From the NCBI GenBank assembly GCA_030614005.1, contig JAUWKS010000050.1, forward strand, positions 1 to 24,161: a stretch of 24,161 nt of DNA. The letters are read 5' to 3'. Under the pieces are notes generated by a model. The model was given only the letters and a program-made list of their open reading frames with translations. It did not search any database and was not told the origin of the DNA. Numbering within the stretch: the stretch's first letter is position 1; each line of letters opens with the position of its first letter. The translations under genes and the position numbers were made by a program. Of this stretch, positions 15,365-21,445 are shown piece by piece. The stretch is from Candidatus Heimdallarchaeota archaeon. GTDB taxonomy: Archaea > Asgardarchaeota > Heimdallarchaeia > JABLTI01.

Positions 15365-16453
15365 TTAGACTTCCCATTTCTTACACTTACTGCCCCAGCA
15401 AGCTATGACTTTTCCATCACGAATAACTCGAATGACTTCGCAGAGATTAGAACAATCTTTGCATTCAAAACCTTTAGTTTCATATTGTAAATCAGGTATA
15501 TTCCAGCCTACGAATTTAGTTTCATAAGGTTTTTTGATCATTTTATTTAAAGCAAGAATAGCTGCACCGATTGCACCCATGACAGCAAAGTTCTCTGGAA
15601 CAATAATTTCTTGATTCAAAGAGCGTTGAAAGGCATCACGAATACCTATATTAGCTGCGACTCCACCCTGAAACATGATTGGACCAAGAATCTCTTTACC
15701 TTTCCCAACATTGTTCATGTAATTTCTTACAAGTGCTTCTGAAAGTCCTCTAATAATGTCTTCAACGGGATGACCAAGTTGCTGTTTGTGAATCATATCA
15801 CTCTCAGCAAATACCGTACATCGACCTGCTATACTAACTGCATTATCTGATTTTAGAGCTAAATCACCAAACTGTTCAATTGGTATCTCAAGTCTATGTG
15901 CTTGCTGATCTAAAAATGATCCAGTTCCTGCTGCACAAACAGTATTCATAGCAAAATCAACAGCAATACCATTTCGAATTAAAATTATTTTAGAGTCTTG
16001 CCCACCAATTTCAAAGATCGTTTGGATATCCTTACTCTCATTAAGTGAAGCTACTGAATGAGCAGTTATTTCGTTTTTAACTATATCCGCTCCTACAATT
16101 AATCCGGTTAATTGACGTGCACTACCTGTTGTTCCTACACCGGCAATAGCAAAATCTTCTCCAACCTTCTCTTTCAGTAGTGTTATTCCCCGTTGTACTG
16201 ATTGTATGGGTTTTCCTTCAGTTCGAATATAAATTGATTCAACGAGTTGCTTATTTCCATCTATTACTGCTAGGTTTGTGCTAATAGATCCAACATCTAC
16301 TCCAAGGAAATATTGATTAGCTAATGAATCTGTCATTATTCCATCATTTGTTTGTCTCAAAACTTCTCCTTTAGCTTCTTGAGTACTTGCCGAATTGCTT
16401 TTTTGTTCTTTTATACAATCACTATTACAATTTGTTTCAGTTTCATTAGTCAT
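15365..16453 (-). CDS. Acyl-CoA dehydratase activase (HgdC/BadF/BcrAD-type ATPase, [4Fe-4S])
   Basis: GVDVGS, TTGSAR, NEITAH, EIGGQDSK, CAAGTGSFLD, RCTVFAESD and GGVAAN motifs, plus C-terminal CKDCSNLC...GSKC. ATG 16453 overlaps the upstream stop (alternative ATG at 16336). Confidence 0.93.
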   Translation of the reverse strand: MTNETETNCNSDCIKEQKSNSASTQEAKGEVLRQTNDGIMTDSLANQYFLGVDVGSISTNLAVIDGNKQLVESIYIRTEGKPIQSVQRGITLLKEKVGEDFAIAGVGTTGSARQLTGLIVGADIVKNEITAHSVASLNESKDIQTIFEIGGQDSKIILIRNGIAVDFAMNTVCAAGTGSFLDQQAHRLEIPIEQFGDLALKSDNAVSIAGRCTVFAESDMIHKQQLGHPVEDIIRGLSEALVRNYMNNVGKGKEILGPIMFQGGVAANIGIRDAFQRSLNQEIIVPENFAVMGAIGAAILALNKMIKKPYETKFVGWNIPDLQYETKGFECKDCSNLCEVIRVIRDGKVIACWGSKCKKWEV

Positions 16454-17585
16454 AATTGAATGTCTCCCAAGTAACTTTTTCGGGTTCTTTCCCACCTAGT
16501 CTCACTTCTCGTTTTAGATACAACATATCTACAAAGGCTTCAAGTCGTGTTTGATATCCTGCTTCCCCTGTTAGTTCATCAACTATCATTGGTAAAACAG
16601 GCATGTCATATTCTTTTGTGATGGCTGGTATAATGTTTTGGGCACTAAGTTCTGGTATGCAAGAAAATGGCCATACATGAACCATGCCATCCCATCCTTT
16701 CTTCTTCAAGAAAATCGTTGTTCCAATGCTCTCTTGCCCATCTCCACCAATATATTCTTGCATGTATGGTCTCGCTTCTTTTCTGTAAACTTTATAATAT
16801 TCCTTTTTGAATGGGTTGATTTTTGCTGGAATATCTGAAAATTTTTTTAAGGACACTCCACATCGTGCTGCTACACCAAGTTTGTTCAAACGACGGTATA
16901 GGTCTAAATGAAGCATTGGTTCTAATACTGCATAGATTTCACCTATTACACCTACTTTTAATGGTATAATTGATTCATCAACCTCTATTTCGTCTTTGAA
17001 AATAGCTGGTATTGTTTTATGGAATTTCTTTACTTCTCTAACTTTTCGTAACTCAAATAGTTTTTCGTATACTTTTGCTGCAACTTTGTCAGTTGTATCT
17101 TCAACTGCTTCCACTGCACGATAAAAATTGATAAGGTTCTCAATAAGATCTATTGAATAATTCTTTGTCCAAATTTTACGTAAAACACCTATTGTTTGGA
17201 ACACACTAAAACCATTACTGATTGCTTTGAAGTCTTTTATCATTTCTACTGGCTTATGGTAATCAATATTAGTGAATTTAACAGTATATCCTAAATCTTT
17301 GCAGATTACTCTTTGTACTGGCCCATAACAACTTGCTCGACAAGTACCAATTCCACCAATTTGGAAAACATGATCTGCTCCTCGTTCAATGCTATCTAGT
17401 AAAGAACCTAAGCATAATTTGAAAGGAGTACACATCCACTCTGGTGAGTGCTTTGACCCACGAGTAATTGTTTCCTTATTCGGTGGAGTAGGTTCGATGA
17501 TATTCTCTTCAGGTACCTCTAGTTCTTGAAAGACTGCTTTAAACAATAAAGTTAGTGAACCAAAATAGGGATAAGTAACTGGCAT
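16446..17585 (-). CDS. 2-hydroxyacyl-CoA dehydratase-like / PlsR-type subunit (CoA protein activase family)
   Basis: SPEWMCTPFK, GTCRASCYG, VGVIGEIY, PFSCIPE and DELTGEAGYQTRLEAFVDML motifs, with three conserved Cys positions. Confidence 0.85.
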   Translation of the reverse strand: MPVTYPYFGSLTLLFKAVFQELEVPEENIIEPTPPNKETITRGSKHSPEWMCTPFKLCLGSLLDSIERGADHVFQIGGIGTCRASCYGPVQRVICKDLGYTVKFTNIDYHKPVEMIKDFKAISNGFSVFQTIGVLRKIWTKNYSIDLIENLINFYRAVEAVEDTTDKVAAKVYEKLFELRKVREVKKFHKTIPAIFKDEIEVDESIIPLKVGVIGEIYAVLEPMLHLDLYRRLNKLGVAARCGVSLKKFSDIPAKINPFKKEYYKVYRKEARPYMQEYIGGDGQESIGTTIFLKKKGWDGMVHVWPFSCIPELSAQNIIPAITKEYDMPVLPMIVDELTGEAGYQTRLEAFVDMLYLKREVRLGGKEPEKVTWETFNYD

Positions 17586-17598
17586 AAAATAAAACTCC

Positions 17599-19982: not shown

Positions 19983-20879
19983 TTAATTCTTGGTATTTTC
20001 AAGCCAAGAATTCTCATATTTTCCTAGATAACCAATGGTCAAATATTTCTTACCAACGAAGTTTGCAACAATAGCACCGGTTTCTTGGATAATTATCTTT
20101 TTATTTTGAGGGTTATATTGTTGCATATAATTGGCTACTTCTTCTGCTGCTTCAGGCCAACATGTGTGACCTATAAACACGTAGCCACTTGTACTGTTGA
20201 TATTTTCTAAAGCTGCTCTACCAAATTTCTTCATCTGCTGAATGATTATTTCATCATTTGCTCTTATTTTTCCTTGGACTGTCACATTTCCTTCAGAAAA
20301 TTTTACAATCGGTTTTACTTTGAAAAAATCTGCTAGAAATTTCTTTGTTCTTGGAACCCTTCCCGTTCTCACTAGATTTTCCATAGTTGACATTATTCCA
20401 GCGTGATTTATTTCTTCCAAATATTCATTTGTCTTTTCGATTATCTCTTCAAAAGACTGGCTGTTTTGTGCCATAATTGCTGCTTCTAAAACCAAAATTG
20501 CTAATCCAACACTAGTTACTTTAGAATCAAAAATACGTATTTTCTTGTCTGGGAATTTTTGTTTAATTAAAGCTTGAGAATTAGTTGCAATTGGAGACAT
20601 TTTGTTTGAAACAAAAATACCAATCGCTGTATCTGCTTTCTGAAATGCTTCCTCAAATTTCTGAAAAATCATTCCTGGAGATGGGGTAGAGGTCGTAGGT
20701 ATTTCATTAACCGTTCTCTTGTAATATTCATCAAGAGATAGTTCCCCCGTTGGACCACAGGAATTATAAACTTTATCGGAGAAAATAATCTTTACCGGAA
20801 TAATGGTAATGTCTAATTTTTTAATTAAATCTACTGGTAAATCACAAGTATCATCAGTTAGTATTGCTACTTTTGCCAT
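19983..20879 (-). CDS. degV: DegV family (FakB-like) fatty-acid-binding protein
   Basis: AILTDDTCDLP, PTTSTPSPG, IFDSK, TGRV, LLKVKP-like FFKVKP and IGHT motifs. Length 298 aa. Confidence 0.92.
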   Translation of the reverse strand: MAKVAILTDDTCDLPVDLIKKLDITIIPVKIIFSDKVYNSCGPTGELSLDEYYKRTVNEIPTTSTPSPGMIFQKFEEAFQKADTAIGIFVSNKMSPIATNSQALIKQKFPDKKIRIFDSKVTSVGLAILVLEAAIMAQNSQSFEEIIEKTNEYLEEINHAGIMSTMENLVRTGRVPRTKKFLADFFKVKPIVKFSEGNVTVQGKIRANDEIIIQQMKKFGRAALENINSTSGYVFIGHTCWPEAAEEVANYMQQYNPQNKKIIIQETGAIVANFVGKKYLTIGYLGKYENSWLENTKN

Positions 20880-21049
20880 TTTGATTGGTTACTCCTAATA
20901 ATTAGTTAGTATTGTAATTTCACCGACAAAAGGTCGGATATGAAAAATAATCTAACTTTAGAGAATAAAAAAATTACTACGAAATACATATATTGAGTAT
21001 TTGGGAGAAAAAAGAATCAATGAATAAAAAAAAATAGAAATCAGATGAA

Positions 21050-21445
21050 TTATTCACCTGCTTGACCGTATTTGAAATCTGGAGCACAAAAGCTTGATTT
21101 TTCACCTTTCAACCAGGCATTTAGACCATCTTTCTCATAAACAACCTTGTCATTAATCGTGAGTTTTATTTTATCAAGACACCAATCATCATCTTTTGCG
21201 GTTCGCGTTTTTTTCTTGAAACATAAATAACGGAAATCTGATTCAGTCAAATCAGATGGTACATCTAAATTATAGCTATCTGTATTTCCTCTTTCAAAGT
21301 CATCATAATGAGGTTTATCTAGATTCCATTCATGACCTCCAACGTAAAGTACAATGGGGTCATCTGTGGAGCTTTTTCTTTTTTCACTACAAGTAGTGAG
21401 TTCTAGAACAATTTTGTCAATTTTTTCATATTCTCTGTCTGTCAT
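21050..21445 (-). CDS. Stand-alone PLAT/LH2 domain protein
   Basis: STDDPIVL, DDFERGNTDSY, DDWCLDKIKL and NAWL match the PLAT/LH2 consensus (FERGxxDxF, WxLxxI, WL). No signal peptide. Confidence 0.8.
   Translation of the reverse strand: MTDREYEKIDKIVLELTTCSEKRKSSTDDPIVLYVGGHEWNLDKPHYDDFERGNTDSYNLDVPSDLTESDFRYLCFKKKTRTAKDDDWCLDKIKLTINDKVVYEKDGLNAWLKGEKSSFCAPDFKYGQAGE

Follow-up and report, generated by a model that had tools for sequence, protein, structure and literature searches.

Introduction

The characterized relatives of the DUF2229 genes considered here make ether lipids. Plasmalogen synthase has the domain order Act1-Act2-Red1-Red2; its coding sequence is a single gene of 4.2-4.9 kb or is divided between plsA and plsR (PMC12838417). 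Ger is built around a BBD core (two BcrAD_BadFG domains plus DUF2229) that is conserved in all confirmed alkyl-ether producers, and Ger homologs have been reported in Lokiarchaeota and Heimdallarchaeota (PMC13159169). We analyzed a stretch of 24,161 nucleotides from Candidatus Heimdallarchaeota archaeon (contig JAUWKS010000050.1 of assembly GCA_030614005.1; hereafter the window), in which genes of the PLAT, DegV, and PlsY families lie beside a three-gene module that consists of a DUF2229 subunit (D1), a second catalytic subunit (D2), and an HgdC-type activase ATPase.

In PlsY the pocket for glycerol 3-phosphate (G3P) consists of Ser35, Arg45, Lys104, His177, and Asn180 plus Asn37, which are needed for G3P binding; in the Aquifex enzyme His177 is irreplaceable, and the N180D variant loses >95% of its activity while its Km rises 22-fold (PMC5700162). 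Bacterial PlsY takes glycerol 1-phosphate (G1P) as well as G3P (PMC13400652). Asgard archaea are the closest archaeal relatives of eukaryotes, and their capacity for fatty-acid-based or ether lipids of the bacterial or eukaryotic kind bears on how membranes passed from the archaeal to the bacterial type in eukaryogenesis. A sequence-only reading of the window had presented the six genes as a candidate pathway for bacterial-type ether lipids across the lipid divide and had named the physical link of PlsY to the ether-forming module as its notable part; homologs of Ger, PlsY, and PlsC in Asgard archaea have already been published (PMC13159169, PMC6737245, PMC13400652). What is new is the split, permuted, single-activase architecture of the module in a Heimdall lineage free of PlsC, and the neighborhood of this split module with a non-canonical PlsY.

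Results and Discussion

Two Neighboring Transcription Units

All six genes lie on the minus strand, and an open reading frame (ORF) listing together with Pfam and NCBIfam scans confirmed the domains first assigned to them (Table 1). PlsY is not co-transcribed with the module. The interrupting 83-aa ORF (orf83) is real; it is kept only in L047 and L048, the loci of the two closest relatives, with hidden Markov model (HMM) scores of 125-167. PlsY on the minus strand and orf83 on the plus strand converge on a hairpin, and orf83 and D1 are divergent, so the six genes make up at least two transcription units and no single operon. The hairpin marks the end of the DegV-PlsY unit, and orf83 separates PlsY from the D1 operon.

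Our preferred reading, to which we give a probability of roughly 55%, is that these are two independently transcribed neighboring units that were juxtaposed recently. The balance of the evidence tilts toward their not being a dedicated pathway. The first unit (PLAT, DegV, and the PlsY-like gene) would be a paralogous copy, now diverged, of the pair with which the lineage handles fatty acids. The second (D1, D2, and the ATPase, with the divergent orf83 upstream) would encode a low-potential iron-sulfur enzyme that is driven by ATP.

The source of the window is a 3.62-Mb metagenome-assembled genome (MAG; G000) with a completeness of 90% and a contamination of 3.4%, in which it makes up contig C103. 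Two independently assembled MAGs named Candidatus Heimdallarchaeota, whose D1 is 90-94% identical, show this gene order too, and because independent assemblies keep the identical order the contig is no chimera. The source is a Heimdall-group Asgard archaeon, in line with the Asgard-like origin first proposed. That the arrangement is an assembly chimera or a bacterial contamination of the MAG is very unlikely, to the point of being negligible: the DegV, PlsY, and DUF2229 families are mostly bacterial and the contamination estimate is above zero, but metagenomes of marine sediments and cold seeps from 4 studies also contain the stretch, its GC content is even over the window (about 0.31-0.39), and the D1 family is found in 187 of 399 Asgard genomes.

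The Module as an ATP-Driven Iron-Sulfur Enzyme

The ATPase was aligned with residues 4-262 of HgdC (1HUX) and keeps both cluster cysteines (CAAGTG and C-TVFAES); it also carries a CxxCxxxC tail. The D1 model (pLDDT 86.6) matches HadB/C (2-hydroxyisocaproyl-CoA dehydratase), DCCP, BzdNO, and MbdON with TM scores of 0.43-0.50 at 10-13% identity, and the Foldseek probability is 1.0 against 3o3n, 6eno, 7yzm, and 8s02. Invariant cysteines are Cys82, Cys117, and Cys332 in D1 and Cys52, Cys82, and Cys309 in D2. A D1-D2 heterodimer was predicted with a score of 0.85 (best control 0.00), a mark that 58 of 80 solved complexes and 2 of 110 mismatched pairs attain. The three prediction runs have at least 87% of contacts in common, with a partner pLDDT of at least 86. 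Four of the six invariant cysteines (C117 and C332 of D1, C52 and C82 of D2) fall within the predicted interface, which flanks the other two through residues 80-81 (D1 C82) and residues 307-308 and 310-311 (D2 C309). The prediction supports binding of D1 to D2, with a score that may partly reflect likeness to solved complexes of the benzoyl-CoA reductase (BCR) and 2-hydroxyacyl-CoA dehydratase (HAD) type. The alignment of the ATPase with HgdC, the D1 fold, the invariant cysteines, and the predicted heterodimer together place the module clearly among the ATP-driven low-potential Fe-S reductases or dehydratases of the BCR/HAD/DCCP superfamily.

By analogy with HgdC, the ATPase would form a dimer around a bridging [4Fe-4S] cluster held by the two conserved cysteines, take up an electron from ferredoxin or flavodoxin, and pass it on by ATP hydrolysis. 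The electron would then reach the predicted D1-D2 heterodimer, whose invariant cysteines are expected at or near the subunit interface, and a carbonyl or ester of the substrate could be reduced via a ketyl radical. Of the single candidates for this substrate, a glycerolipid acyl ester leads; the assignment is tentative, with odds well short of even.

The class alone would also suit fermentation of amino acids or aromatics by a classical 2-hydroxyacyl-CoA dehydratase or benzoyl-CoA reductase, and the ATPase indeed matched HgdC, HadI, and MbdQ at 1e-35, next to the HadB/C- and BzdNO-like fold of D1. Like HgdABC/HadBCI, DCCP/DCCP-R, and the class I benzoyl-CoA reductases, the window module combines the D1 superfamily fold with an ASKHA activase that has two cluster cysteines. 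We nevertheless regard this explanation as very improbable. PDB sequence searches gave zero matches for D1 and only chance-level matches for D2 (E about 0.6-1, the best at 0.6), the identity to the matched folds is just 10-13%, D1 and D2 match DUF2229 and not full-length HGD-D, and the activase has an extra Cys-rich tail of the PlsA type. Nor did family scans of the window find CoA-transferase or fermentation genes near the module, which thus differs from those enzymes in having no CoA-metabolism context. Within the BCR/HAD superfamily the subunits fall in the DUF2229 branch, outside the classical dehydratases and benzoyl-CoA reductases, as had been anticipated. A published study of Hermodarchaeota benzoyl-CoA reductase treats true Bzd-type genes and not the D1 family (PMC8163825).

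A Split Relative of PlsA/PlsR and Ger

The module has the same parts as PlsA/PlsR (CPE1194/1195 in C. perfringens; single-gene PlsA in Enterococcus, Lactococcus, and Bifidobacterium), namely, an HgdC-type activase, Red1, and Red2, the last two supplied by D1 and D2. The CxxCxxxC tail after the activase and the predicted logic of an ATP-driven Fe-S reductase are also common to both. Unlike PlsA/PlsR, the window module has one activase domain and not two, is laid out as three genes (D1-D2-B) and not as a fused B-B-D1-D2, and is just 21-36% identical to the fused type. With Ger (Tmari_0479 of T. maritima; SHJ90043 of D. alkenivorans) it has the DUF2229/BcrAD_BadFG family in common, but the BBD core of tandem activase plus DUF2229 is missing: the single activase is a protein of its own (362-376 aa), and D1 and D2 are separate genes.

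A fused gene of the PlsA/Ger type does occur in the window genome, on contig C61. Its ORF of 1263 aa matches BcrAD_BadFG, DUF2229, and HGD-D, its N-terminus is cut by the contig end, and its gene neighbors show no lipid context. Since a 985-aa BBD protein of Loki-type Asgards aligns with it from residue 217 of that protein, about 216 N-terminal residues are missing from the C61 product. This ORF fits Ger far better than the window module does, and it is more likely than the module to be the Ger homolog that has been described in Heimdallarchaeota. The window ATPase is 36% identical to the C61 activase, including the CxxCxxxC motif (CKDCSNLC), D1 is 21% identical to C61 residues 448-745, and D2 was aligned with residues 1106-1173 in the C-terminal stretch.

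An exhaustive search with D1 among 1.84 billion cluster representatives gave 2131 matches at E<=1e-3. Each of the best 150 is either 213-395 aa long or a D1-D2 fusion of 690-770 aa, and tandem activase domains occur in none of them; the atlas clusters of the family come chiefly from Bacillota and Actinomycetota. In a D1 tree with Asgard fused homologs standing in for the fused type, the window D1 falls in a Heimdall-rich clade (SH-aLRT 100) apart from the acyltransferase-linked clade described below and from the fused D domains, which form a separate group (SH-aLRT 100). Because the best 150 are all split proteins and the fused domains group apart, we do not count the module as an ortholog of PlsA/PlsR/Ger; it is a true but split relative within a separate large family. 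Of the PlsA/PlsR/Ger-like module proposed in the sequence-only reading, the DUF2229 branch, the alignment with C61, and the common cysteine tail therefore stand, while membership in the fused family does not. The window module is one of several paralogous modules in the lineage.

Linkage of the Module to plsY and degV

Conservation of the link between the module and plsY/degV in relatives had been set beforehand as a test that could refute the pathway, and the outcome went against it. A D1-family HMM was run on the 399 Asgard genomes, in which positive genomes had up to 5 or more matches each, and 58 loci were fetched for synteny. The D1-D2 pair stays together wherever the contig continues, and the ATPase is next in most loci; some Heimdall-class copies consist of D1-D2 only. 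PLAT, DegV, and PlsY stand beside the module only in the window genome and its two closest kin (G081 and G087), three near-identical genomes. In a genome of the same genus, with a D1 that is 77% identical, DegV is 5 kb off and there is no PlsY, and the remaining D1 orthologs have neither DegV nor PlsY nearby. At 40 further loci, PlsY was found in 0 and an adjacent DegV in 1.

The window genome encodes 19 DegV and 6 PlsY paralogs in 3.6 Mb. For a random 3.4-kb segment of this genome, the chance of having PlsY or DegV nearby is 3.4% within 1 kb and 6.9% within 5 kb, and that of DegV alone within 5 kb is 5.3%. DegV is near modules in about 7-9% of loci, which equals chance for a genome with 19 DegV genes, and over the 58 loci the link of the module to plsY/degV is about as frequent as chance. 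We judge the juxtaposition of the module with DegV and PlsY to be recent. Elsewhere, the neighbors of window D1 orthologs are an MFS transporter, a flavin reductase, a calcineurin-like phosphoesterase, an M23 peptidase, and an Arf-like GTPase, with no common theme; no lipid theme was seen either in contexts outside the surveyed Asgards, which are mostly probably bacterial (L014, L015, L016, L105, L108, and L109).

These figures bear on another explanation, in which the substrate is a fatty acid or acyl group bound to DegV as a carrier instead of a finished glycerolipid. The module would, for example, dehydrate or reduce a hydroxy- or oxo-acyl chain, and the PlsY-like protein would then transfer the product. 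Split modules have DegV close by or adjacent to them in four separate contexts (the window group, L050, L062, and L085), and the classical chemistry of the superfamily is dehydration of alpha-hydroxyacyl groups. However, the rate of DegV near modules is that expected by chance, and no carrier-binding feature was identified. We consider this explanation improbable.

The PLAT-DegV-PlsY Unit and Other Pathway Parts

In the sequence-only reading PlsY transfers acyl-phosphate to G3P, a role that its residues do not bear out. The window protein scores 95.9 bits with TIGR00023, against an equivalog cut-off of 137.2. As in bacterial PlsY (Aquifex aeolicus 5XJ5; E. coli) that works with FakA/FakB, the PF02660 membrane fold and the motif 2 FKGGKG are present, and equivalents of Ser35, Arg45, His92, and Lys104 are kept. 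In contrast to the bacterial protein, the window copy has an extra loop of about 20 aa, no adjoining FakA, and three changed residues, with Ser in place of Asn37, Tyr in place of His177, and Glu in place of Asn180 (RYIPEF against RHHDN in E. coli). Since His177 and Asn180 are lost, this PlsY copy has probably given up the standard acylation of glycerol phosphate. The Asn180 equivalent is missing from all 6 PlsY paralogs of the window genome, three of which also miss the GSGN serine. The PlsY of such genomes can thus be catalytically atypical, and a PlsY match calls for a motif check before it is taken to mean G3P acylation.

The DegV protein scores 114 bits with the FakB1 equivalog model, against a cut-off of 350. 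Its gene ends 28 bp before PlsY, and PLAT is kept beside it in L047 and L048; the genome has one PLAT paralog (contig C63, 45% identity) without lipid context. No lipid genes surround the closest paralogs of PlsY, DegV, and PLAT in the genome (C8, C24, and C63).

A canonical arrangement is found at another locus, unrelated to any D module, in sister genomes of the same genus: a co-directional operon of a FakA-like gene (Dak2 plus FakA-like_M, about 330 aa), DegV, and PlsY. The PlsY of this operon scores 160 bits with PF02660 and has GSGN and HxxN intact. The operon represents a bacterial-type fatty-acid kinase/PlsY route in a Heimdall-group lineage. It is absent from the window assembly. Because sister genomes hold this FakA-DegV-PlsY operon elsewhere, the window DegV-PlsY pair, which has the same order, looks like a diverged duplicate without the kinase.

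The search of the window genome for the partners that a pathway would need came out mostly empty. Neither PlsX nor FakA (Dak2) was found in the 90%-complete assembly, and for GpsA the match did not exceed 25 bits. Of 11 relatives, 9 have a FakA-like gene, which lies at the other locus. GGGPS (PF01884) was likewise not found in the assembly, a result to which we attach no weight. PF01553 (PlsC) is absent from 12/12 genomes of the host's taxonomic family.

A Related Operon in Loki-Type Asgards

Among the 58 loci, the commonest neighbors of the module are a PF01553 acyltransferase (20) and a HAD phosphatase (15). The acyltransferase-linked loci form one D1 clade (SH-aLRT 99), whose hosts are genomes labeled Promethearchaeia/Promethearchaeota together with some Hermod-, Hod-, Odin-, Thor-, and Borrarchaeota. 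Their genes form a co-directional operon in the order HAD, tandem acyltransferase, D1, D2, and ATPase, often followed by a small acyltransferase. The large acyltransferases, of which two were scanned, have two domains and score above the TIGR00530 AGPAT cut-off. We found no paper describing an Asgard operon of HAD, tandem AGPAT, and a split D1-D2-ATPase module.

Like the window, the Loki-type operon has the same split D1-D2-single-ATPase family beside a glycerolipid acyltransferase. It belongs to another D1 clade, however, and its PF01553/TIGR00530 acyltransferase is in the same operon with a linkage of 60/69, whereas in the window the module adjoins a separately transcribed, non-canonical PlsY, in 3 genomes only. 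Since the window D1 is outside that clade, the Loki-type operon supports a lipid role of the window module by analogy and not by orthology. The acyltransferase-linked Loki-type operon is the stronger and directly testable case; the window is a second, weaker association of a split PlsA-like reductase with an acyl-transfer gene, in a lineage without PlsC.

In four of these loci (L082, L100, L077, and L083) the acyltransferase-linked D1 is followed by a pair formed by a BBD protein (985 aa) and a PlsR-like protein (about 470 aa). The 474-aa gene after the Loki-type BBD gene is PlsR-like because it matches C61 residues 748-1198. L083 additionally encodes an 837-aa FAD_binding_4-DUF2229 fusion.

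The Six Genes as a Proposed Ether-Lipid Pathway

The pathway originally proposed couples the two units: DegV delivers fatty acids, PlsY acylates glycerol phosphate, and D1-D2-ATPase turns the sn-1 ester into an alkyl or vinyl ether. The adjacency of six genes in an order kept in three genomes, the domain-for-domain match to PlsA/PlsR/Ger with the common CxxCxxxC tail, the independent link of the sister clade to AGPAT-type acyltransferases, and the acceptance of both G1P and G3P by bacterial PlsY (PMC13400652) all speak for it, and the FakA-like/DegV/PlsY operon implies that acyl-phosphate chemistry exists in the lineage. Against this, the linkage is shallow and at chance frequency, PlsY and D1 are transcribed separately, on either side of an opposite-strand gene, and the window PlsY is without the two residues of which one, altered to N180D, costs the Aquifex enzyme >95% of its activity (PMC5700162). 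In addition, FakA, PlsX, and PlsC were not found in the window genome, GpsA is represented by its 25-bit match alone, the window D1 is outside the acyltransferase-linked clade, and the fused Ger-like gene of the same genome is a more direct candidate for ether formation. We therefore hold the coupled pathway to be unlikely, although a serious contender.

Several observations weigh against our preferred reading of two separate, recently juxtaposed units. The upstream genes have a lipid theme in common (lipid binding by PLAT, fatty-acid binding by DegV, and acyl transfer by the PlsY family), and PlsY would be within 500 bp of a random segment by chance in only 0.8% of cases. In another genome of the same class (L085, contig C16 of G019), DegV lies 106 bp upstream of a split D1-D2-ATPase module and is co-directional with it; this DegV is not kept in the sister loci. 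An acyltransferase is directly upstream of D1 in those 60 of the 69 species-level loci of the Loki-type clade, and most of the other 9 end at that side. The sole characterized DUF2229 relatives, PlsA/PlsR and Ger, use glycerolipid esters (PMC13159169, PMC12838417). Finally, the D1 tree that sets the window module apart uses Asgard fused homologs as stand-ins for the characterized PlsA, PlsR, and Ger sequences (AGL49404, SHJ90043, and CPE1194/1195).

A variant of the pathway would accommodate the altered PlsY. In this PlsC-free Heimdall lineage, a re-tooled PlsY, a dedicated DegV, and PLAT would feed the split reductase and give fatty-acid-derived ether lipids by a route parallel to, but independent of, the Loki-type operon; the change of the phosphate clamp to an acidic residue would imply an acyl acceptor other than glycerol 3-phosphate. 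We see this as a distinctly unlikely scenario, and the two-unit reading remains the one that we prefer.

Gene Coordinates and Additional Features

The coordinates are collected in Table 1. The likely starts of D1 and the ATPase are ATG 18753 (384 aa) and ATG 16453 (362 aa), respectively. The membrane-anchored protein downstream of the ATPase is probably outside the module.

Table 1: Coordinates of the window genes and of related loci discussed in the text.
Feature	Location	Strand	Remarks
PLAT/LH2-like, stand-alone, 131 aa	21050..21445	-	PF01477 33.5 bits (cut-off 23), residues 14-114
DegV/FakB-family fatty-acid-binding protein, 298 aa	19983..20879	-	PF02645 199.9 bits; TIGR00762 203.7 bits
Divergent PlsY-family membrane protein, 237 aa	19241..19954	-	PF02660 102.9 bits (cut-off 24.1)
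Hairpin, terminator-like, 10-pair stem	19229..19252		Between convergent PlsY and orf83 ends
orf83, 83 aa	18975..19226	+	Without Pfam or NCBIfam match; divergent from D1
D1, DUF2229 catalytic subunit, Red1 equivalent	17599..18753	-	PF09989 155.9 bits; ORF open to 18810
D2, second catalytic subunit, Red2/PlsR equivalent	16446..17585	-	Weak DUF2229 30.3 bits; HGD-D C-terminus 19.2 bits
HgdC-type activase ATPase, one BcrAD_BadFG domain	15365..16453	-	PF01869 144.6 bits; TIGR00241 162 bits; ORF open to 16495
Hairpin	15357-15377		At ATPase stop
Membrane-anchored protein, 389 aa	14135..15304	-	Without family match; N-terminal hydrophobic anchor; conserved only in L048
Protein with FG-GAP repeats and bacterial Ig domains, 1847 aa	6784-12327	+	
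Second Ig/PPC-domain protein	23007-24161	+	Runs past window end
Fused PlsA/Ger-type ORF, contig C61	L013:2914-6705	-	1263 aa
Activase paralog fragment, G000 contig C71, L183	C71:30-251	+	C-terminal 73 residues
DegV and split D1-D2-ATPase, G019 contig C16	L085:8481-12671		
FakA-DegV-PlsY operon, G081 contig C6	L184:2778-5560		Same genus
FakA-DegV-PlsY operon, G089 contig C47	L185:2671-5349		Same genus
Acyltransferase operon loci	L065-L069, L072, L075-L084, L099-L103, L111-L177		LarA-family gene inserted in families f15-f17
Acyltransferase-linked D1, then BBD and PlsR-like pair	L082:9566-15404; L100; L077; L083:1928-4441		

The window genome holds the end of a second activase paralog, 51% identical to the window ATPase and with the Cys tail kept; it is followed by a pyridine nucleotide-disulfide oxidoreductase, and there are no lipid genes around it. 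A second module probably sits at the assembly gap near the start of contig C71. The window also encodes two proteins with Ig domains, one on either side of the genes discussed here. Contig DATKZI010000057.1 (L009/L050) comes from a MAG that is recorded as Candidatus Bathyarchaeia, yet genome-based placement puts it in the same genus as the window genome; the MAG encodes RING-finger proteins too, and its Bathyarchaeia label looks wrong.

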